Assembly (NCBI RefSeq): GCF_019799945.1
Contig: NZ_JABGCH010000002.1
Location: forward strand, 294,219-326,218
DNA: 32,000 nt
Source of the DNA: Modestobacter marinus
GTDB taxonomy: Bacteria; Actinomycetota; Actinomycetes; Mycobacteriales; Geodermatophilaceae
Reading direction: 5' to 3'
Shown: positions 20,209 to 31,730 of the stretch, in pieces
Position numbering within the stretch: position 1 is the stretch's first letter
Layout: each line of letters opens with the position of its first letter
Notes under the pieces: model-generated
The model's input: the letters and a program-made list of their open reading frames with translations, nothing else
Told to the model about the DNA's origin: nothing
Databases searched by the model: none
Program-made: the position numbers and the translations under genes

Positions 20209-20436
20209 CTACTCGCTCGGCTGCGGGAGCGAGGGGCACTCGACCTGCGGATTGACGCCGAGGTAGTTCAGCGGCCCCGCCACGATCGTGATGATGATCG
20301 TGCTCGTCGAGGCGCAACTGGTGTCGCCGCTGGTGAAGTAGCCACGCTGGCCGGCCGCGAGCGCGCCGATGGCCAGCCAGACCAGCAGCAGGATCATCCC
20401 GATGCTGGTCCCCCGCCTGGACCTCGTTGTCCTCAT
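20209..20436 (-). CDS. Small membrane protein (1 N-terminal TM, 2 Cys), hypothetical
   Basis: 75 aa from ATG 20436: MRTTRSRRGTSIGMILLLVWLAIGALAAGQRGYF...GPLNYLGVNPQVEC. Last gene on the hydrogenase strand. Confidence 0.55.
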   Translation of the reverse strand: MRTTRSRRGTSIGMILLLVWLAIGALAAGQRGYFTSGDTSCASTSTIIITIVAGPLNYLGVNPQVECPSLPQPSE

Positions 20437-20560
20437 GCGTGCTCCACTACCCCACGGCGACGTCCGCCACGCCGATCCGCACAACTGGAGACGTCCCGTC
20501 CCCCTGGGTCCTGTACCTGCTCGACGAGCAGGCGACGGACTGCACGGGTCGCTCGAGGCC

Positions 20561-21347: not shown

Positions 21348-21602
21348 TCACTCGACCTGCTCCCCGGGGTCGCGGGCGCGGCCCATCAGCTCCAGGCCGC
21401 TCATCGCCTGCCCGGCCCCCGCCGCGTCGGTGGTCTCGACGGCGAAGCCCATGTGGATGAGCACCCACTGACCCGCCTGCGGCGGCTCGTCGAGCAGCCC
21501 GATGTTGACCCTGCGCGCCGCCCCCTCCACCTCGACGAGGGCGAGCTGGTCGCCGAAGCCCGGCACCATGCCGACCACCCGCCCGGGGATCCCGAGGCAC
21601 AC
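21348..21602 (-). CDS. hypC: HypC/HupF-family [NiFe]-hydrogenase assembly chaperone
   Basis: 84 aa with the hallmark N-terminus (M)CLGIPGRVV and GQWVLIHMGFAV. GTG start. Confidence 0.93.
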   Translation of the reverse strand: MCLGIPGRVVGMVPGFGDQLALVEVEGAARRVNIGLLDEPPQAGQWVLIHMGFAVETTDAAGAGQAMSGLELMGRARDPGEQVE

Positions 21603-21603
21603 C

Positions 21604-22098
21604 TCAGCCCACCTCCGTCGGCCGGCGGTTCCCGGCCACCACGGCCCGCACCGTCTCCACGGCCACCGGGACGGCGGCCGCGACCGGCGGGGTCAACCCC
21701 ATGCCCTCGCCGGTGTCGGCGACCTGGCAGCCGACCAGCAGGGTCCGCTCGGGAAGCCGGCCACCGAGCGCCGCCAGGGTGGCGAGCACGGTGGCGGGGT
21801 CCATGCCGTGGGCGTCGATCGCGGCGTGCCCGCCGTCGTCCGCCAGGATCTCCACCAGGGCCACGGTCCCGACCGCACCCCGGTCGGGCACCGCGTCCAC
21901 CAGGACGACGGTGTCCCACGGGTCCACCAGGTCGTAGGACAGGTGCAGCCCGCGGATGCCGTAGTCGACCACCCGGACGCCGTCGGGCCAGGACAGCCCG
22001 GCCAGTCGCCGGGCCACCTCCGGACCGAATCCGTCGTCGGTGCAGAAGACGTTCCCGATGCCGGCGACCAGCACCCGGGCTGCCGCGGGAGCCGCCAC
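21604..22098 (-). CDS. hupD: [NiFe]-hydrogenase maturation endopeptidase (HyaD/HupD family)
   Basis: 164 aa with VLVAGIGNVFCTDDGFG, VVLVDAV and DAHGMDP (metal-binding Asp/His pattern). Confidence 0.9.
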   Translation of the reverse strand: MAAPAAARVLVAGIGNVFCTDDGFGPEVARRLAGLSWPDGVRVVDYGIRGLHLSYDLVDPWDTVVLVDAVPDRGAVGTVALVEILADDGGHAAIDAHGMDPATVLATLAALGGRLPERTLLVGCQVADTGEGMGLTPPVAAAVPVAVETVRAVVAGNRRPTEVG

Positions 22099-22472: not shown

Positions 22473-22730
22473 TCAGCCGGCCTGGTCGCCGGTCGGCAGG
22501 TCCGGAGCGCCGGGCTGGGCTCCCTGCGGGTCGACCGTCGTGTCGGTGTCCTCGGCCGGCCGGCCGCTGGGCCGGTCGACCGGCCCGCCGGCGGGCTCGT
22601 CGGAGCCGGTGTCCCGCGAGCCGGGAGCGCCGCGGGCGGACTGCGACTCCTCCTGCAGCTGGGTGCCCGGGTCGGTGCCGTCATCGGCGTCGACGATGTC
22701 CCGTCCTCGTCCGGTCATGGCCGCGCTCAC
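22473..22730 (-). CDS. Hypothetical acidic, intrinsically disordered protein (85 aa)
   Basis: GTG 22730 overlaps the upstream stop (GTGA); ATG 22718 is an alternative start. High GC3, Asp/Gly/Pro-rich, no hydrophobic core. Confidence 0.5.
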   Translation of the reverse strand: MSAAMTGRGRDIVDADDGTDPGTQLQEESQSARGAPGSRDTGSDEPAGGPVDRPSGRPAEDTDTTVDPQGAQPGAPDLPTGDQAG

Positions 22731-22846
22731 ATCCGCCGCATGGACAGGTAGCGCTTCACGTCCGGCACCGATCGGATGCCGATGACCACGGCTCCGGCCA
22801 CGGCCACGCTCAGCAGCGCGGTCGTGAGCATGCCGATCACTCTCAC
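22727..22846 (-). CDS. Tiny single-TM protein (34-39 aa; I recall similar ones as DUF6893 small proteins)
   Basis: (VRVIG)MLTTALLSVAVAGAVVIGIRSVPDVKRYLSMRRM. GAGGAG lies 8 nt before GTG 22846, which overlaps the upstream stop (GTGA). ATG 22831 is an alternative start. Confidence 0.6.
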   Translation of the reverse strand: MRVIGMLTTALLSVAVAGAVVIGIRSVPDVKRYLSMRRM

Positions 22847-24174
22847 GGCGGGGTCTCCTCTCGCTGGTCGACGTCCGGTGTCCCGACGAGGGGTTCGAGC
22901 TCGTCGGGGGCGAAGTACAGGTGGCGGCCGTACCAGTCGTGCAGCTCTGCCGCGGGGTCGTCGTCGACGGTGACGGCGACGTGCGTCGCGCCGTCGAGGT
23001 CGACGTGGACGGCGCTGACGGCGGCCTCCCGACCGGCGAGGAACATGTCCTGGGCGTCGGCCCGCCGCGACGGGCGCAGCCGTACCCGGCTGCCCCGCGC
23101 GATGCGCACCCCGGCGACCAGCACCGCGTCGGTCTCCGGCGAGACCGGCGCCGCGGCCTCCGCGGCCCACCAGTCGTCGCCGGTCAGGGCCGGGTGCGGG
23201 TCGCGGAGGATGCCGTGCAGGCGCTGGAGCTCCACCGGGGTCAGCCGGTCGCAGCGGTCGATGATGGTCGCGGCCCGGGGGTCGGTGGCCCGGGCCGCCG
23301 CCTTCTCCTCCTCGGTCAGCGTCATCACCCGCAGGGTGAGGATCTCGTCGATCTCGGTGGAGTCGAACAGCGCCCCGGCGCTCTCCGGGGCCACCGCCGG
23401 GTGGTCGTACAGGATGATCGGCGAGGCCAGCACCACCTCGGACTCCTGACCGCCGCCGCCGGCGAGCACCGGCCAGCAGCGGTGCTGACGGCAGCGTCCC
23501 GCGGCCGCCCGCGCGTCCGCCGGCGGGTCGAGCAGCGAGACGAACCGCGCTCCCCCGGCCACCAGCAGCAGGTGCGCGCCGAGCAGCGACGAGGCCAGCG
23601 CCGCGTCCCGGTCCGCGACCCGGTCCCCGGTGTTGGCCACCCGGACCTCCAGCCGCAGCAGCGGGCCGTCGTCGTCCGCGCGCAGGGAGACCGCCGCCCG
23701 CAGCGGCCCGCGCCGCCGGACCAGCCGGCCGCCCGGCACCGGCTCGACGTCCTCGCCGCCGGGCACGAGGACGGTCCGGTCGACCCCCCGGCGCAGCTCG
23801 TCCACGGGCACCGGGCCGAGCTCCCGCTCGACCGCGACCGCCTCGTCCCAGGTCGTCCACACCCGGTCGCCGGCCCGCAGCTCGCCGACCTCCTCGACGG
23901 TGCCGTCCGCGTGGGCCCGCTCGGCCTGCCGGCGCTGCAGCTGGAGGCAGCGCAGGTGCACGGTCACCGTCACCGGGCCGGGCCCGGCGCGCAGCAGGCA
24001 CTGGACGGCGAGGTCCGGTTCCTCTCCCACCCCGGCCTCGGCGGCTCCCGGCGGGCCGAGCACGCCGAACTGCCACCGCACCTGGTTCTTGGCCGCCGTG
24101 GACCGGTAGGGGTACAGCAGGTACCCCTCGTAGAGGACGGCGTCCGCGGCGAGCCGCGCCAGCGCGAGGGTCAT
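22843..24174 (-). CDS. Conserved-looking hypothetical protein, 443 aa (hydrogenase-cluster orphan)
   Basis: ATG 24174 overlaps the upstream stop (ATGA). Starts MTLALARLAADAVLYEGYLLYPYR. I recognise no motif. The upstream part of track ORF 22843..24948 is another gene's antisense or overlap. Confidence 0.75.
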   Translation of the reverse strand: MTLALARLAADAVLYEGYLLYPYRSTAAKNQVRWQFGVLGPPGAAEAGVGEEPDLAVQCLLRAGPGPVTVTVHLRCLQLQRRQAERAHADGTVEEVGELRAGDRVWTTWDEAVAVERELGPVPVDELRRGVDRTVLVPGGEDVEPVPGGRLVRRRGPLRAAVSLRADDDGPLLRLEVRVANTGDRVADRDAALASSLLGAHLLLVAGGARFVSLLDPPADARAAAGRCRQHRCWPVLAGGGGQESEVVLASPIILYDHPAVAPESAGALFDSTEIDEILTLRVMTLTEEEKAAARATDPRAATIIDRCDRLTPVELQRLHGILRDPHPALTGDDWWAAEAAAPVSPETDAVLVAGVRIARGSRVRLRPSRRADAQDMFLAGREAAVSAVHVDLDGATHVAVTVDDDPAAELHDWYGRHLYFAPDELEPLVGTPDVDQREETPP

Positions 24175-24830
24175 GGCCCGGCCGGCTCCCCCGCCGGCTG
24201 CCCGGCCTCGGCGAGCAGCGTGGTCACGACGTCGTCCCAGCTGGTCAGGCCGCGCCGGGACCGGTGCTGCGCGAGGGCGTCGACGGTGTCCCGGCGCATC
24301 CGCACCCACTCGCTGCCCGGGAAGTGCGCCTCCATCAGGTCGCGCCACACCGCGACCGGCAGCCGGTACCGCGCCTCCGCCTCCCAGGACACCGGGGTGA
24401 CGGCGAAGCCGGTGGCGCCGCGGCCGAAGACCGTCCCGCTGAACAGGAACAGCAGCGGCACCTCGCCGTCCCGCAGCCCGTGCAGGTAGGGAGTGCCGGC
24501 GACGTCGAAGTCGTACGTGCACGGCAGGACCAGCTGCAGCTCGGTGGCGCCGGTGAACCCGGGAGCCACGGTGGAGGTGTGCAGCCAGGAGAAGGGCCGC
24601 AGGGTCTGCGCGAACCGCGACCGGTCGCCGAACAGGTCCCGCAGCGCCCGTTCCTCCTCGTCGTCGTAACGCCGTCGCTGCGGCTCGATCCGCACCTGCG
24701 CCCGCAGGGCCAGGGCGTGCACCGGCTCGCCGGTGCCCTCCTCCACCCGGACCCGGGCGAGCAGGTTCGGCGTGACCGCGTACGGCTCGGGCACCACGTC
24801 GAGGACGGCGAAGGACAGCTGCGGGGTCAC
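24171..24830 (-). CDS. Hypothetical protein, 219 aa (I recall the family as DUF6084)
   Basis: GTG 24830 overlaps the upstream stop (GTGA). Starts VTPQLSFAVLDVVPEPYAVTPNL. Globular composition. Confidence 0.75.
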   Translation of the reverse strand: MTPQLSFAVLDVVPEPYAVTPNLLARVRVEEGTGEPVHALALRAQVRIEPQRRRYDDEEERALRDLFGDRSRFAQTLRPFSWLHTSTVAPGFTGATELQLVLPCTYDFDVAGTPYLHGLRDGEVPLLFLFSGTVFGRGATGFAVTPVSWEAEARYRLPVAVWRDLMEAHFPGSEWVRMRRDTVDALAQHRSRRGLTSWDDVVTTLLAEAGQPAGEPAGP

Positions 24831-25492
24831 GGCGCTGCCCCTTCCGCCGCGCGCGTGCTGCGATCGGCCAGGTCGGCGAAGAAGGCGTCGAGCAGGGCGC
24901 GGGCCTCCGAGCCCCCGTCGAACCCGCGCCAGGCCAGCCGGAGGGCACCGGCCAGCTCGTAACAGCGGTCGATCGGCACCACGTGGGCCGCGGTCCCGGC
25001 GCCGTTGCGGTCCGGCATGCGGACGATCAGTGCCTCGACGTCGGGGGCCATCCGCGCGAGCACCGGGTCGGCGGCCACCATCCGGTCCCAGGCGCCCAGC
25101 GGGAGCTCCGACTCGGTGGCCCCGGCCGGGCCGGGGTAGAACGCCACCGTCCGGTGCTCCACCGAGTTGGTGAAGAAGAACGCCAGCCCGACCGGGATCT
25201 CCAGCTCGTCCCACTGGCCGGCCGAGAGCGCGAGGCCGGGCACGGCGAGGTACCGGTCGGGCACCGCGCGGTAGCGCTGCTCGGCGGCCTCGGCGGTGAA
25301 CAGCAGCGCGCACGGGCGGCACGCGCACAGCAGTCCGCGGCCGACCAGGTCCACCACGTGCGGGTGCTGCTCGCCGATCTCCTCGCCGCACATCTCGCAC
25401 CGCTCCCGCGCGGCCGGCGCCGGCCGGTTCGCCCGCACCCGTGCCAGTACGGCGAGCGCATCGGCCCCGGGCCGCGGGCGGGCGCTGGTCAC
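24827..25492 (-). CDS. Hypothetical Cys-motif protein, 221 aa (I recall the family as DUF5947)
   Basis: GTG 25492 overlaps the upstream stop (GTGA). Cys motif C-x2-C-x20-C-x-C-x2-C (CEMCGEEIGEQHPHVVDLVGRGLLCACRPC). Confidence 0.75.
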   Translation of the reverse strand: MTSARPRPGADALAVLARVRANRPAPAARERCEMCGEEIGEQHPHVVDLVGRGLLCACRPCALLFTAEAAEQRYRAVPDRYLAVPGLALSAGQWDELEIPVGLAFFFTNSVEHRTVAFYPGPAGATESELPLGAWDRMVAADPVLARMAPDVEALIVRMPDRNGAGTAAHVVPIDRCYELAGALRLAWRGFDGGSEARALLDAFFADLADRSTRAAEGAAP

Positions 25493-26421
25493 GTCCCCGC
25501 CCCGGCGGGGACGGCGAGCGCCACGCCGCCGTCGGTGACCAGCAGCGGGACCGGCTCCAGGTGGTCGGCGGTCCCGTCGAGCCCCCGGCCGGCGCGGCGG
25601 ACGTCGTAGTGCGCCGCGCACGCCGGGCAGCGCAGCACCGCGTCCCCGGCGGAGCCGCCGAGCCGCCGCTCGACCAGCCCGCCGGCCAGGCTGCCGCCGC
25701 AGCGGGGGCAGCGGTCGCGGTAGGCGTACAGGTCGCCGGCGATCCGGGCGCCGACCACGGGGATGCCGGCCACGGAGAACGCGCCGAGCTGCCCCGGGGC
25801 CAGGTCGCCGAGCCCGTCCACCGCCGTCCAGGAGGCCTCGGCGGACGGGTGGTCGCCGTCCAGCCGCGCGCGCAGCGCGGCCAATGGGATGACCGTCCCG
25901 GCGGCGGGCGCCTCCTCCACCGCGATCCCGGTGACCTCGGGCGCGGCCGCCCGGACGGCGGTCTCCACGGCGAGGGTCAGGGTGACCGCGGACGACGGGC
26001 AGCCGTCGCAGCTGCCGAGCATCCGCAGCCGCACCACGCCGTCCCCGGTGACCCCGAGGAGCTCCACGTCCCCGCCGTGCGAGCCGAGGTAGGGGCGGAC
26101 GCCGTCCAGGGCGCGCAGCACCCGGGTCCCGACGTCCTCCGGGTGCAGGCCGTGCACGGTGAGCAGGCCGGCCACCAGCTCGTCCGCCGCCAGCCGGTCG
26201 AGCAGGTCGTCGTCCAGCCGGCCGGTGTCGTGCAGGATCCCCAGCAGCCGTTCCAGCCCGGCGCCGTAGAGGTCGGCGACCAGCCGCACGAGCTCCTCGG
26301 CCCGCTCCCGGGCCACCCGTCCGCCGGCGGCGGCGGCCTCCAGCAGTGCCTCGATGCGCTCCCCGGTGGCCCCGAGGTCGAGCTCGCCGCCCTCGGGCGG
26401 GGCCCGGTCCGCCGCCGTCAT
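25489..26421 (-). CDS. NifU-domain Fe-S protein with a Rieske-fold-like C-terminal domain (HhyE-like)
   Basis: 310 aa. ATG 26421 lies 10 nt after the hhyL stop. NifU C-terminal motif YLGSHGGDVELLGV..LGSCDGCPSS. The C-terminal region has CPRCGGSL...CPACAAHYD in a Rieske-like beta context. Confidence 0.85.
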   Translation of the reverse strand: MTAADRAPPEGGELDLGATGERIEALLEAAAAGGRVARERAEELVRLVADLYGAGLERLLGILHDTGRLDDDLLDRLAADELVAGLLTVHGLHPEDVGTRVLRALDGVRPYLGSHGGDVELLGVTGDGVVRLRMLGSCDGCPSSAVTLTLAVETAVRAAAPEVTGIAVEEAPAAGTVIPLAALRARLDGDHPSAEASWTAVDGLGDLAPGQLGAFSVAGIPVVGARIAGDLYAYRDRCPRCGGSLAGGLVERRLGGSAGDAVLRCPACAAHYDVRRAGRGLDGTADHLEPVPLLVTDGGVALAVPAGAGT

Positions 26422-26431
26422 GGTCGGCCGC

Positions 26432-28222
26432 TCACTCGCCGGTGACCGACTGGGTGGGCGAGTGGGTGAGTTCCAGCGTCTTCCCGTTCCCGAGGTACAT
26501 GTGCACGCCGCACGGCAGGCAGGGGTCGAAACTGCGGACGGTGCGCATGATGTCGATCCCCTTGAAGTGCTCCCGGTCGTTCTCCTCGAAGATCGGCTGG
26601 CCCTGGACCGCGTCCTCGTACGGGCCCGGCGTGCCGTAGGAGTCGCGCGGGGCGGCGTTCCACGGGGTCGGCGGGTACGGGTGGTAGTTCGCGATCTTGC
26701 CGTCGCGGATGACCATGTGGTGGCTGAGCACGCCGCGGACGGCCTCGGTGAAGCCGCAGCCGATGGCCTCGTCGGGCACCTCGAAGGACTCCCACGTCTT
26801 GGTGTTGCCGGCCCGGATCTCGGCGAGCGCCTTCTCCGCGAAGTGCAGCGCGCAGGCCGCCGCGTAGGCCTGGAAGTAGGTGCGGGCCCGGTTCCGCTCG
26901 AGCGTGTTGCTCCACCGCGGGATGTGCCACTCCAGGGTCACCGGCCCCTTGAGCGCGGTCTTGGGCAGGTTGATCTGCACGCTGTGCCCGGTGGCCTTCA
27001 CGTAGCCGATGTCGACCAGCTGGGCCAGCGCCGTGGACCACAGCCGGGCCAGCGGGCCGCCGCCGGTGTCCAGCGCGAGGTGGTCGCGGCCGTCGAACCA
27101 GCGCGGGCTCATCACCCAGCTGTACTTGTCGTCCAGGTCGCGCTTCTGCGGCCGGGGGTTGGTGTGCTGGTTCCACGGGTGCCGGACGTCGACCGGGTTG
27201 CCCAGCGGGTCCCGCTCGACGAAGACCTCCTGGCCGACCCAGTCCTCGTAGTAAGAGCTCCCGAGCAGGATCCGGATGCCCAGGTTGATGTCCACCAGGT
27301 CGGTGGTGACCAGCCTCCCGTCGACGACGACGCCCGGGGTGACGAACATCTTCCGGCCCCAGTCCGTCATGTCCCGGTACTCGAAGTTGCAGTGCTCCGG
27401 GTCCTGGAAGGAGCCCCAGCAGCCGAGCAGGGTCCTGCGGAGACCCACCTGCTCGTAGCCGGGCAGCGCCTCGTAGAAGAAGTCGAACAGGTCGTCGTGC
27501 ATCGGCACGACCTTCTTCATGAACTCGACGTAGCGCATGAGCCGGGTCAGGTAGTCGGTCATCAGCTGGATCGTGGCCACGGTGCCGACCCCGCCGGGGT
27601 AGAGCGTGGAGGGGTGCACGTGCCGCCCCTCCATGAGGCAGAACATCTCCCGGGTCCAGCGGCTGACCTGCAGCGCCTCGCGGTAGAACTCGCCGGAGAA
27701 CGGGTTCAGCGACCGCATGACGTCGCCGATGGTCCGGTACCCGTGGGCGTCGGCGTGGGGGGCCTCGGTCCGGTCGGCCCGCGCGAGGACGCCGGGGTTG
27801 GTCTCGGCGACCATCTTCTCGCAGTAGTCCACCCCGACCAGGTTCTCCTGGAAGATGTTGTGGTCGAACATGTACTCCGCGGCCTCGCCGAGGTTGACGA
27901 TCCACTCCCCCAGGTGCGGCGGCTTCACGCCGTAGGCCATGTTCTGCGCGTAGCAGGAGCAGGTGGCGTGGTTGTCCCCGCAGATGCCGCAGATCCGGCT
28001 GGTGATGAAGTGCGCGTCGCGCGGGTCCTTGCCCTTCATGAAGATCGAGTAGCCGCGGAAGATCGACGAGGTGCTGTGGCACTCGACGACCTCCCGGGCG
28101 TCGAAGTCGATCTTCGTGTAGATGCCCAGGCTGCCCACGATCCGGGTGATCGGGTCCCAGGCCATCTCCACCAGGTTGGTGGTGGCCTCCCTGTCGACGA
28201 TGCGGGGCTGGGTCACGGTCAT
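26432..28222 (-). CDS. hhyL: [NiFe]-hydrogenase large subunit, group 1h/5 (high-affinity Hhy type)
   Basis: 596 aa. The N-terminal Ni-Fe ligand motif TSRICGICGDNH and C-terminal SFDPCLPCGVH are the group-5 L1/L2 signatures. A 22-aa tail after the His (MYLGNGKTLELTHSPTQSVTGE) is the expected protease substrate. Confidence 0.97.
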   Translation of the reverse strand: MTVTQPRIVDREATTNLVEMAWDPITRIVGSLGIYTKIDFDAREVVECHSTSSIFRGYSIFMKGKDPRDAHFITSRICGICGDNHATCSCYAQNMAYGVKPPHLGEWIVNLGEAAEYMFDHNIFQENLVGVDYCEKMVAETNPGVLARADRTEAPHADAHGYRTIGDVMRSLNPFSGEFYREALQVSRWTREMFCLMEGRHVHPSTLYPGGVGTVATIQLMTDYLTRLMRYVEFMKKVVPMHDDLFDFFYEALPGYEQVGLRRTLLGCWGSFQDPEHCNFEYRDMTDWGRKMFVTPGVVVDGRLVTTDLVDINLGIRILLGSSYYEDWVGQEVFVERDPLGNPVDVRHPWNQHTNPRPQKRDLDDKYSWVMSPRWFDGRDHLALDTGGGPLARLWSTALAQLVDIGYVKATGHSVQINLPKTALKGPVTLEWHIPRWSNTLERNRARTYFQAYAAACALHFAEKALAEIRAGNTKTWESFEVPDEAIGCGFTEAVRGVLSHHMVIRDGKIANYHPYPPTPWNAAPRDSYGTPGPYEDAVQGQPIFEENDREHFKGIDIMRTVRSFDPCLPCGVHMYLGNGKTLELTHSPTQSVTGE

Positions 28223-30248: not shown

Positions 30249-30596
30249 TCAGGTCACCGCGCGCCGCTCGGCGAGCACGACCGACACCACCGACAGCTCC
30301 CGCCCGGCGACCACCTCGACGTCGGCGCTGCCGCAGCCGCAGAGCAGGACCGGGTCGCGGAGGACGAAGTCCTGCCCACAGGTGCGGCAGCGGGCCCGCC
30401 CCTCGGGACGCTCGAACTCCAGCGCGGCGCCCTCCAGGGGCGTCCCCGCGGTCACCAGCTCGAAGCAGAACCGCATCGCGTCGGGCACGACCCCGGACAG
30501 CCGGCCCACCCGCAGCCGGACGCCGGCCACCGGGACGTCCCCGGTCCGCGCGGTGACGACGTCGACGACGCCCTGGGTGATCGCGAGCTCATGCAT
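30249..30596 (-). CDS. hypA: Hydrogenase nickel-insertion metallochaperone HypA
   Basis: 115 aa from ATG 30596 after AGGAG. N-terminal MHE Ni site and Zn motifs CRTCG...CGCGS. Confidence 0.9.
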
Positions 30597-30622
30597 CGCA
30601 CTCCTGCCCGTCCAGGGCCGGG

Positions 30623-30651
30623 ACGCTACGCCGGGCGGCGGCGCGGGTGAA
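30623..30651 (-). promoter_or_regulatory. Candidate sigma-A-type promoter for hypAB (TTCACC-N17-TAGCGT)
   Basis: Minus strand: -35 TTCACC (30651-30646), a 17-nt spacer, -10 TAGCGT (30628-30623), then a leader of about 20 nt carrying AGGAG before the hypA ATG. Confidence 0.35.
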
Positions 30652-30667
30652 GGCCCCGCGACCGCCC

Positions 30668-31228
30668 CTACTGCCCGGCCAGCCGGCGCAGCGTGCGCAA
30701 CGATTCCTCGGCCGACCAGAGCGCCAGCCGCCAGGGCGCGGTCGCGGCCGCACGGAGCAGCTCCGCGCCCAGCCGGCACAGGTCGGCGTACTCCGGAGTG
30801 CGCGGGCCGGCCGCCGGAGCGGCCGCGGACGTCGTCGGGGTGGGCCCGGCGGGGGGCGTCGTCGGGGTGGGCCCGGCGGGGGGCGTCGTCGGGGCGGCTC
30901 CGGCGGTAGGGGGCGTCGGAGCCGGCCCGGTCGCGGGCGGCGCCGGCGGGAGGAGCGCGTCCATGGCGGTGCGCCGTTGCGGCGCGCGCAGCGAGGCGAA
31001 CGACGGGATCGCCGGGGAGGGCGGGCCCTCGTCGCGGGCCGGCTCGGGCACCACTTGCCGGATCGCCGCGATCATGCCGGCGCCCAGCCCCGGGACGGCG
31101 GCGAGCTCCCGCCGGGAGAGGACGGCGAGGTCGTCGACGCTGGTGATGCCGGCGCGGATGAGCGCGGAGACCGCCCGTCCCGGCAGACCCAGCTCCCGGA
31201 TGTCGTCCCCCGGGGACCTGGTCGGCAT
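30668..31228 (-). CDS. RNA-polymerase alpha C-terminal-domain-like (helix-hairpin-helix) protein with a Pro/Thr-repeat linker
   Basis: 186 aa. The N-terminus IRELGLPGRAVSALIRAGITSVDDLAVLSRRELAAVPGLGAGMIAAIRQVV matches the alphaCTD HhH pattern by eye. A P/T/A-rich repeat region and a short C-terminal helical segment follow. Confidence 0.7.
   Translation of the reverse strand: MPTRSPGDDIRELGLPGRAVSALIRAGITSVDDLAVLSRRELAAVPGLGAGMIAAIRQVVPEPARDEGPPSPAIPSFASLRAPQRRTAMDALLPPAPPATGPAPTPPTAGAAPTTPPAGPTPTTPPAGPTPTTSAAAPAAGPRTPEYADLCRLGAELLRAAATAPWRLALWSAEESLRTLRRLAGQ
30830..30883. repeat. Perfect 27-bp tandem repeat x2 (degenerate copies continue to about 30940)
   Basis: CGTCGTCGGGGTGGGCCCGGCGGGGGG occurs at 30830-56 and 30857-83. 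It encodes PTPTTPPAG units in the minus-strand protein. Confidence 0.9.
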
Positions 31229-31234
31229 GGCCCC

Positions 31235-31240
31235 AACCTA
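31235..31240 (-). promoter_or_regulatory. Candidate -10 hexamer TAGGTT, 6 nt before ATG 31228 (leaderless mRNA?)
   Basis: The minus strand reads gcgcTAGGTTggggccATG. It is a TANNNT hexamer with no RBS. Confidence 0.35.
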
Positions 31241-31299
31241 GCGCCGCCCCGGCGGGACGCGGCGGGGACCGGGCGCAACCGACGAGCCCGGACGGCACC

Positions 31300-31730
31300 C
31301 CGCCTGCCGCCCGGCATGGTCGACCGCCCGACCGAGCACACCGGCTGCCGGACAGGACTCCGGCCGCCGTGGAGGCCCAGGTCCTGGCGATGTGCTCGGC
31401 GCGCGCGCTCGGCCCAGCCCGGATCGGTCCGCTGATCGCGCTGGCGCCCTCGACGGTGCACGCGGTGCTGTACCGCGACGGCATGCACTGCCTGGCCTGG
31501 CCGGATCGGCCAACCGGTCAGCCGGTCCGCCGCTACGAGCGCGCCCGTCCCGGCGAGCTGGTGCACGTCGATGTCAAGAAGCTCGGCGCCATCCGCCCCG
31601 CCGGCGGCTGGCGCGCCCACGGCCGCGGCTCGGCCGAACACCACCACAGCCGCAGCGAGACCAACGCCGGCCGCCGGGTCGGGTACGACTACGTCCACTC
31701 CCTCGTCGATGACCACGCGCGACTGAGCCG
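31300..31730 (+). mobile_element. IS481-family transposase gene fragment (truncated at both ends)
   Basis: The translation ..DRTPAAVEAQVLAMCSARALGPARIG..STVHAVLYRDGM..RRYERARPGELVHVDVKKLG...GYDYVHSLVDDHARL matches the middle of IS481 transposases, from the linker to the first DDE Asp region. The N-terminal HTH and the remaining catalytic core are absent. Sense breaks after about 31725. Confidence 0.75.

Follow-up and report, generated by a model that had tools for sequence, protein, structure and literature searches.

Accessory genes of a group 1h [NiFe]-hydrogenase operon in Modestobacter marinus: comparative evidence favours a role in enzyme assembly

Atmospheric H2 has a major biological sink in the group 1h [NiFe]-hydrogenases, which are also attractive as O2-insensitive catalysts. 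In their operons, the genes between hhyL, which encodes the large subunit, and the maturation protease gene have been labelled 'conserved hypothetical' for more than ten years, and the question is whether they encode the electron acceptor or assembly factors. One of the closest described systems is the AH operon on megaplasmid pHG1 of Cupriavidus necator (Ralstonia eutropha) H16, in which hofK and hofG (large subunit) are followed by genes for a NifU family protein of 192 amino acids (aa), a DUF5947 protein, a DUF6084 protein, a hypothetical protein of 476 aa and an endopeptidase, with overlaps of 4, 8, 4 and 4 nucleotides (nt). PHG066 to PHG069 of this operon were given as being of unknown function, and PHG066, PHG067 and PHG070 are within the top 50 expressed genes of the organism (PMC4377017). 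A proposal cited in PMC6883350 makes PHG067, a DUF5947 protein, the electron acceptor of AH, and MSMEG_2717 of Mycobacterium smegmatis is reported to be its homologue (PMC6883350). In Thermomicrobium roseum the genes after hhyLS are the conserved hypothetical hhaABC, which were co-induced 5.5-fold with hhyLS (PMC6776052). Here we describe the corresponding genes of Modestobacter marinus, found in a stretch of 32,000 nt (contig NZ_JABGCH010000002.1, positions 294,219 to 326,218; hereafter the window). The window contains the M. marinus copy of the conserved group 1h accessory set (genes g1 to g5), of which g1 to g4 have the same order as in pHG1, plus two lineage-specific disordered proteins (g6 and g7).

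The original prediction, which was made from the letters of the window, had called these genes a dedicated but undescribed accessory module. The dedication holds up, by synteny and by co-occurrence on plasmids. Since the same open reading frames (ORFs) appear in the literature as PHG066-069 and probably as hhaABC, and g1 as HhyE, the module is known and named, and 'undescribed' falls away. The Modestobacter instance is ordinary by itself, and its value lies in the cross-genome evidence to which it leads. New in this evidence are fusions of g4 to the endopeptidase, of the NifU-like protein to DUF5947 and of DUF6084 to the 443-aa g4 family. It also comprises a location of the module within a hyp cluster in one lineage, Cys-less NifU-like orthologues, and a universal, often unannotated DUF6893 micro-protein. 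This comparative evidence shifts the balance towards assembly. We favour, with a probability of about 0.55, a dedicated assembly/maturation module whose proteins would not be part of the mature electron path.

Co-inheritance, conserved overlaps and natural fusions

Relatives of g4 were sought in one genome per species, where at least 593 were found, and the locus counts given throughout refer to the best 80 of them, mostly from Actinomycetota. The order hhyS-hhyL-g1-g2-g3-g4-g5-hupD-hypC was present in every one of the 80 loci not cut by a contig end. DUF5947 follows the NifU-like gene in 78 of 80 loci and in pHG1, DUF6084 precedes the long hypothetical protein in all 80, and g5 is present in 78. 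Across a collection of 72,556 plasmid records, hhyL-like genes (E<=1e-50), g4 homologues and g2 homologues were found in the same 13 records, in each of which the module genes lie within a few kilobases (kb) of hhyL. Homologues of g3 were found in 11 of these 13, and the two records without one are Streptantibioticus cattleyicolor replicons (NC_016113.1 and NC_017585.1). Eight further contexts of distant g4 relatives were all located among hydrogenase or hyp genes. Among the outcomes that the original prediction named as speaking against it was an equal frequency of these families at sites without hhyL; this is not the case in the 13 of 13 plasmids or in the 80 loci.

Translation of the window confirmed the coordinates and lengths that had been predicted for six ORFs on the minus strand (g1 to g6; Table 1), as well as five 4-nt start/stop overlaps at exactly the claimed positions, which read GTGA, GTGA, ATGA, GTGA and GTGA from g1/g2 to g5/g6. 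The GC content at third codon positions (GC3) of the six ORFs is 0.90-0.98 in a window of ~75% GC, which supports that they are coding. All six genes listed between hhyL and the protease stand, although their count does not, because g7 is a seventh. The gap between g6 and g7 is 26 nt, g1 begins 10 nt past the hhyL stop, and Shine-Dalgarno-like purine-rich runs are located 7-18 nt 5' of the starts of g3, g4 and g5.

We then counted, at each junction, the loci in which a start forming a 4-nt overlap is available. Such overlaps are kept at g1/g2 (54 of 75 loci), g2/g3 (68 of 78) and g3/g4 (78 of 80), that is in 72-98% of loci, compared with 8% at the control junctions hhyL/g1 (6 of 74) and hupD/hypC (6 of 73). 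The corresponding counts were 31 of 78 for g4/g5 and 1 of 13 for g5/g6. Translational coupling from g1 to g4 is a conserved trait, while the g4/g5 and g5/g6 overlaps are a detail of lineage.

Natural fusions indicate which partners belong together. In 7 of the 150 best g4 clusters at 50% identity, g4 is fused in frame to a HycI endopeptidase, and one more cluster, the eighth, holds a truncated version of such a fusion. Three of the fusions were confirmed in a normal operon context, and since the nearest relatives of the fused proteins are unfused, the fusion arose more than once. One organism carries, on two independent contigs, a DUF6084::g4 fusion (P0223, 765 aa) and a fusion of a protein like the g1 N-terminal region (g1N-like) to DUF5947 (375 aa). 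The fusion pattern suggests two sub-modules, g1-g2 and g3-g4-protease. Outside Modestobacter-like lineages, the protease gene lies directly after g4, with a 4-nt overlap in most contexts examined; this adjacency was seen in pHG1 and in loci L083, L088, L091 and L092/L093. In L092/L093, genes for a g1N-like protein, DUF5947, g4, the protease and DUF6893 directly follow hypA-hypB. No structural hydrogenase genes were found on this 13.9-kb contig, and g3 was not detected in L092. In L083 a g4-like gene comes directly after hhyL, where g1-g3 would otherwise stand, and the protease gene follows it. Since some group 1h clusters are without DUF6084 and L083 has this order, the g4-protease pair is the most constant part of the module, and no other member is linked as closely to the endopeptidase as g4.

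The family identities, the strict co-inheritance with hhyL, the conserved overlaps and the natural fusions are direct observations. The expectation that the proteins are produced together, often as a complex, agrees with the overlaps and fusions: the genes are probably co-produced and their products probably interact, and we infer physical complexes among them.

Protein families of the module

The g1 protein begins with a helical region carrying an HGLHP motif. It is followed by a NifU-like domain (Pfam PF01106, 6e-21) in which C138/C141 form a CxxC; over residues 100-175, g1 aligns with the Pfam NifU domain and with Nfu proteins of solved structure, and the CxxC is retained (PDB matches at 5e-14). 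A Rieske-fold-like C-terminal domain holds two further CxxC pairs, C238/C241 and C265/C268, and the Cys residues of all three pairs are conserved at 92-96%. The score for Rieske itself (PF00355) was marginal at 21.4 bits against a cut-off of 20.3 (E 2e-4). A Rieske [2Fe-2S] centre was rejected because Cys stands in place of the His ligands: the ligand positions read CxxC...CxxC and not CxH...CxxH, although the fold is related. Located next to the group 1h large subunit, g1 carries exactly the motif set of HhyE, a NifU-like CxxC plus two C-terminal CxxC (PMC6883350). The original prediction had counted g1 among the uncharacterised genes, but a protein of this type, HhyE (MSMEG_2718), has already been deleted in M. 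smegmatis. Loss of HhyE abolished activity even with the artificial acceptor nitroblue tetrazolium (NBT), the authors allow that HhyE may act in assembly, and the same paper cites that HhyE and HhyLS migrate together on native gels (PMC6883350).

Short g1-like proteins of other phyla, including PHG066, are homologous to g1 residues 10-170 (E 1e-13 to 1e-27). Outside Actinomycetota these proteins keep the HGLHP motif and the fold without the NifU CxxC. The CxxC and the C-terminal four-Cys domain are found in actinobacterial loci, whereas pHG1, L088, L090 and L092 have g1-like proteins without them. Electron relay by iron-sulfur (Fe-S) clusters is therefore ruled out as the function that the family conserves.

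The g2 protein belongs to DUF5947 (Pfam PF19372, 1e-70; 237 bits against a cut-off of 25). The residues C32, C35, H43, H45, C56, C58, C61 and C177 are invariant across 81 sequences, Cupriavidus among them, giving the pattern CxxC-x7-HxH-x10-CxCxxC...C. That these residues do not vary from Modestobacter to Cupriavidus argues for a metal site, and we regard g2 as a putative metal-binding protein. The site is kept in every lineage, including those with a Cys-free g1. An AlphaFold2 (AF2) model of g2 had a predicted local distance difference test (pLDDT) score of 77.9, and Foldseek found no match for it in the PDB with E<0.04. The public M. marinus gene model for DUF5947 (P0272, NCBI, 188 aa) starts at Met34. 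Because the Met34 model loses the invariant Cys32, there is better support for the GTG start within the GTGA overlap, which gives 221 aa; the Met34 start also removes a conserved N-terminal helix (start region 25394-25492).

The g3 protein is DUF6084 (Pfam PF19562, 6e-91; 304 bits against a cut-off of 25) and has no conserved Cys/His cluster; neither g3 nor g4 has a family-wide conserved Cys. For g4 there was no Pfam or NCBIfam match. It is 100% identical to an M. marinus hypothetical protein and has 3855 related clusters at 50% identity, and tblastn aligned it with the syntenic 476-aa pHG1 ORF (43% identity, E 4e-30), which places it with PHG069. Alignment of profiles with hhalign gave no relationship of g4 to g3 or to g2, so they are not paralogues. 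The AF2 model of g4 (pLDDT 90.4; predicted TM-score, pTM, 0.78) comprises an N-terminal conserved motif (YEGYxLYPYR...KNxxRWQFG), a large beta-sandwich, an acidic helical segment and a small SH3-like barrel at the C-terminus. The barrel resembles PetP, an SH3-like protein (Foldseek probability 1.0, TM-score 0.63-0.75 over ~70 residues), and the nitrile hydratase beta subunit was matched with a probability of 0.66-0.80 over 170-200 columns, at a target-normalised TM-score of 0.23-0.25. Both likenesses are of a generic fold in proteins unrelated by sequence, and we do not take them as evidence of function. The top Foldseek match of the g4 model was DISARM DrmA (PDB 7s9w_A / 7s9v_A; probability 1.0, E 8e-7). 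It may reflect a shared beta-sandwich domain, and with TM-scores of 0.28/0.12 and a root-mean-square deviation of 21 A we leave it uninterpreted. A Phage_TAC_7 assignment for g4 was likewise rejected: the match, to the acidic helix in 8 of 60 family members, lies below the cut-off and is driven by composition.

When g2, g3 and g4 were compared by sequence and by profile with every PDB chain, 5AA5 included, nothing meaningful emerged; 5AA5 is the only solved group 1h enzyme, and its large subunit is processed. The claim that no Hyp maturation motif can be assigned to g2-g6 is borne out. None of g2-g7 matched a Hyp or HycI model of Pfam or NCBIfam at E<=0.01, nor at E<=10, whereas the genes adjoining the module match HycI, HypC, HypB and HypA models. 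HhyL ends in DPCLPCGVH followed by a 22-aa extension, and the deposited HofG chain of 5AA5 stops at the His of this motif, which marks HhyL as a normal substrate of the protease.

The g5 protein is DUF6893 (Pfam PF21833, 3e-12; 46.8 bits against a cut-off of 24.6). Its single transmembrane (TM) helix (Kyte-Doolittle value over 19 residues, KD19, 2.28) is the only TM-like segment in the cluster. The original prediction of a 34-39-aa single-TM protein was right about the helix; as to length, all 79 homologues have 39 aa, and 34 aa can be dropped. Gly5 is invariant, and the C-terminal end is conserved as S-[ILV]-P-D-x-x-R-Y-[LM]-x-x-R-x-M. The DUF6893 gene stands after the protease gene in pHG1, as it does in other phyla. 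The pHG1 copy is a 33-aa ORF (MKGFLKYLVLPALVVALLANIKDIRRYIRIRSM; L085:10330-10431, NC_005241.1 ~66753-66854) flanked by the AH protease gene and hypF that matches DUF6893 at E 8.8e-10, above the Pfam cut-off. It occupies a gap without a listed gene; the PLSDB gene table is incomplete, and the ORF may be annotated elsewhere. We had considered that DUF6893 tracks membrane association, as yes in mycobacteria and seemingly no in C. necator, but rejected this because pHG1 encodes DUF6893 and the AH of C. necator has been described as a cytoplasmic enzyme (PMC4377017). Two other variations were seen around DUF6893. In L090:11270-11620 three tandem copies follow the protease gene, two of them called as genes. 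In L081/L088/L089, which belong to a non-actinobacterial lineage, a YceI-family gene (PF04264) lies between DUF6893 and hypA, and a PadR-YceI fusion is found at the end of the hydrogenase cluster.

The two disordered proteins are real but vary among lineages and are outside the cross-phylum core. The start of g6 is ambiguous, being either the overlap GTG or an ATG four codons later. Its conserved core runs from about residue 25, with the motif EEPQxERGxxGSRDTGSDxPxGGPxDRPxG visible in ~18 aligned sequences, while g7 carries the motifs PPYEGR, SPAdEQPA and GPxHxxGTxRxED. By tblastn, matches to g6 were found in 23 of 80 loci and to g7 in 17 of 80, a few of these matches being spurious. No Pfam or NCBIfam family model matches either protein. 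The two occur together, and some Mycobacterium loci have them as one ORF next to DUF6390 (L031:15498-15983, L056:17812-18270).

Assembly factors or an electron path

Of the roles that had been suggested for the module, the comparative sequence data point to a specialised assembly scaffold more than to an electron or quinone tether. The g4 protein is repeatedly fused to, and nearly always coupled in translation with, a protease that is specific for the immature large subunit, and is therefore most simply read as a maturation partner. An assembly role also fits the finding that HhyE loss abolishes NBT activity, together with the assembly caveat of the authors of that work (PMC6883350). Further points count for it. 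The placement in the hyp cluster of L092/L093 lends indirect support, no PDB chain including 5AA5 matches g2-g4, hhaABC are co-expressed with hhyLS and PHG066/067/070 are highly expressed, there is no family-wide Cys in g3 and g4, g1-like proteins outside Actinomycetota are without the NifU CxxC, and HhyL carries a cleavable 22-aa extension. In such a module, g1 (NifU-like) and g2 (with its putative Cys/His metal-binding site) would supply a metal or cluster or keep it bound, g3 and g4 would act with the C-terminal endopeptidase on the unprocessed large subunit, and DUF6893 would be a small membrane partner. The tight 4-nt coupling would keep the proteins stoichiometric.

Several observations weigh against this reading. 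Fusion and adjacency show functional linkage and not the step at which it acts. The three conserved CxxC pairs of actinobacterial HhyE and its reported co-migration with HhyLS fit a stable redox partner, as may the eight invariant Cys/His residues of g2 and the proposal of PHG067 as AH electron acceptor (PMC6883350). The hydrogenase Hhy is membrane-associated without TM segments (bioRxiv 10.1101/769216), and g5 as the sole TM protein of the cluster fits a tether. In most genomes the module is located in the structural operon, not in the hyp operon, and the structure models yielded no informative fold match.

In the main rival explanation, the proteins would serve the mature enzyme as its electron outlet or as a tether to the membrane: HhyE and DUF5947 would have Fe-S or metal centres through which electrons pass from HhyS towards menaquinone, DUF6893 would be the membrane anchor of the complex, and g3 and g4 would be structural adaptors. 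The conserved CxxC pairs of g1, the Cys/His residues of g2, the single TM segment of g5, the requirement of HhyE for H2 oxidation and its reported co-migration with HhyLS, the proposal of PHG067 as acceptor and the membrane association of Hhy are all in line with this, as is the location of the module within the structural operon in 80 of 80 loci. Several observations are hard to reconcile with it: g1 homologues of other phyla have no Cys ligands, g4 is repeatedly fused to a protease that acts transiently, the module lies in the hyp cluster in L092, NBT fails to bypass HhyE loss (PMC6883350), DUF6893 is present in pHG1 although the C. necator AH is reported to be cytoplasmic (PMC4377017), and the module proteins are in no solved 1h structure. 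We consider this explanation unlikely. Equally possible is a mixed module, in which g3-g4, the protease and g5 would mature the enzyme, and actinobacterial HhyE, perhaps with g2, would have added a stable redox role. The division of the set by fusions into g1::g2 and g3::g4::protease suits such a split, as do the actinobacterial additions to g1 (the CxxC and the C-terminal four-Cys domain) and the presence in L083 of hhyL, g4 and protease with no g1-g3 between. It leans, however, on the same indirect data, and since the g2 Cys/His residues are invariant even where g1 is Cys-free, g2 does not obviously follow the lineage-specific change of g1.

It could finally be argued that the overlaps are mere compact packing of a high-GC actinobacterial genome and that the genes are unrelated passengers. 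Overlaps of 4 nt are common in such genomes, and neighbouring junctions in this operon are tight, with gaps of 0-13 nt. However, retention of the overlaps far exceeds that at the control junctions, the order and overlaps are also found in a betaproteobacterial megaplasmid, co-occurrence with hhyL is perfect across the 72,556 plasmids, and natural fusions exist. The present data already contradict compact packing, and we consider it highly improbable.

A more specific form of the assembly reading, which we consider less likely than not, is that the module may be a two-part, uncharacterised assembly machine specific to this hydrogenase class. DUF5947 would be a new metallochaperone or cofactor scaffold that works with the NifU-like protein, and its invariant Cys/His site recalls the NiFe site with its paired CxxC ligands. 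A chaperone formed by DUF6084 and the 443-aa protein would hold the precursor large subunit for the endopeptidase, and DUF6893 would connect assembly with the membrane, nickel import being one example. If the module proteins are assembly factors, they are probably required for heterologous production of group 1h enzymes. The two-part machine, if true, would help to explain how the enzyme is assembled in air and could explain why heterologous production of group 1h enzymes is difficult.

The operon and its relation to known systems

The features of the operon are collected in Table 1. The genes g1-g7 are flanked upstream by hypA, hypB, hhyS and hhyL, and downstream by the HycI/HupD endopeptidase gene, hypC and the DUF6390 gene.

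Table 1. Coordinates of the hydrogenase genes and accessory ORFs in the window
Feature	Position	Strand	Evidence
hhyL, group 1h [NiFe]-hydrogenase large subunit	26432-28222	minus	Pfam PF00374; E=0 to 5AA5 HofG
g1, HhyE-type, 310 aa	25489-26421	minus	clean translation
g2, DUF5947 (PHG067 type), 221 aa	24827-25492	minus	clean translation, Pfam
g3, DUF6084 (PHG068 type), 219 aa	24171-24830	minus	clean translation, Pfam
g4, PHG069-type family, 443 aa	22843-24174	minus	clean translation; without Pfam model
g5, DUF6893, 39 aa	22727-22846	minus	clean translation, Pfam
g6, disordered protein, 81-85 aa	22473-22730	minus	ORF, GC3 0.91, tblastn
g7, disordered protein, 115 aa	22099-22446	minus	ORF, GC3 0.92, tblastn
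hupD/HycI-type maturation endopeptidase	21604-22098	minus	Pfam PF01750; TIGR00072 9e-35
hypC	21348-21602	minus	Pfam PF01455, TIGR00074
DUF6390 gene, 261 aa	20561-21346	minus	directly after hypC

Some further observations concern the flanks. DUF6390 is a hydrogenase-linked family with several Cys-containing motifs and is found <=10 kb from the module in 65 of 80 loci. A small ORF 76 nt downstream of the DUF6390 gene (20209-20484, minus strand, GC3 0.90) encodes one hydrophobic segment (GMILLLVWLAIGALAAG) and has no Pfam match. The longest hypA ORF (30249-31484, minus strand, 411 aa) owes its length to the high GC content and is an artefact. Within this ORF the HypA domain spans residues 297-402, the upstream portion has an atypical GC content by codon position (0.71 at second positions, GC2), and the true start is probably a Met near residue 297. 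Similarly, hhyS probably starts at Met37 of its 392-aa ORF.

Sets of hydrogenase-specific genes outside the Hyp families are also known from the O2-tolerant membrane-bound hydrogenases (MBH), namely hoxL/O/Q/R/T/V, hyaE/F and hupG-K. The MBH accessory genes are needed for maturation in air. The likeness is one of analogy only: both sets are located between structural genes and protease or hyp genes, but the MBH accessory families have no sequence similarity to g2-g6. From the Fe-S carriers of the Nfu/NifU C-terminal-domain type, g1 differs by its additional N- and C-terminal domains, and the cluster-binding Cys of these carriers are absent from the g1 orthologues outside Actinomycetota. Among the closest known systems are HhyE and HhaABC of the group 1h operons of M. 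smegmatis and T. roseum, where HhyE has the same position after hhyL as g1. The genes g2-g4 (DUF5947, DUF6084 and the 443-aa family) are probably HhaA, HhaB and HhaC, a mapping made by position only, and g5, g6 and g7 stand outside this nomenclature. Another is the AH operon of pHG1, whose proteins share ~41-47% (g2), ~39% (g3) and, over the C-terminal half, 43% (g4) identity with those of the window. PHG066 differs from g1 in being without the CxxC and the C-terminal four-Cys domain and in having a single Cys, and pHG1 has no g6 or g7. The AH operon belongs to a betaproteobacterium, and its enzyme has been called cytoplasmic (PMC4377017). Both operons encode DUF6893, which in pHG1 is found after the protease and in M. 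marinus before it.

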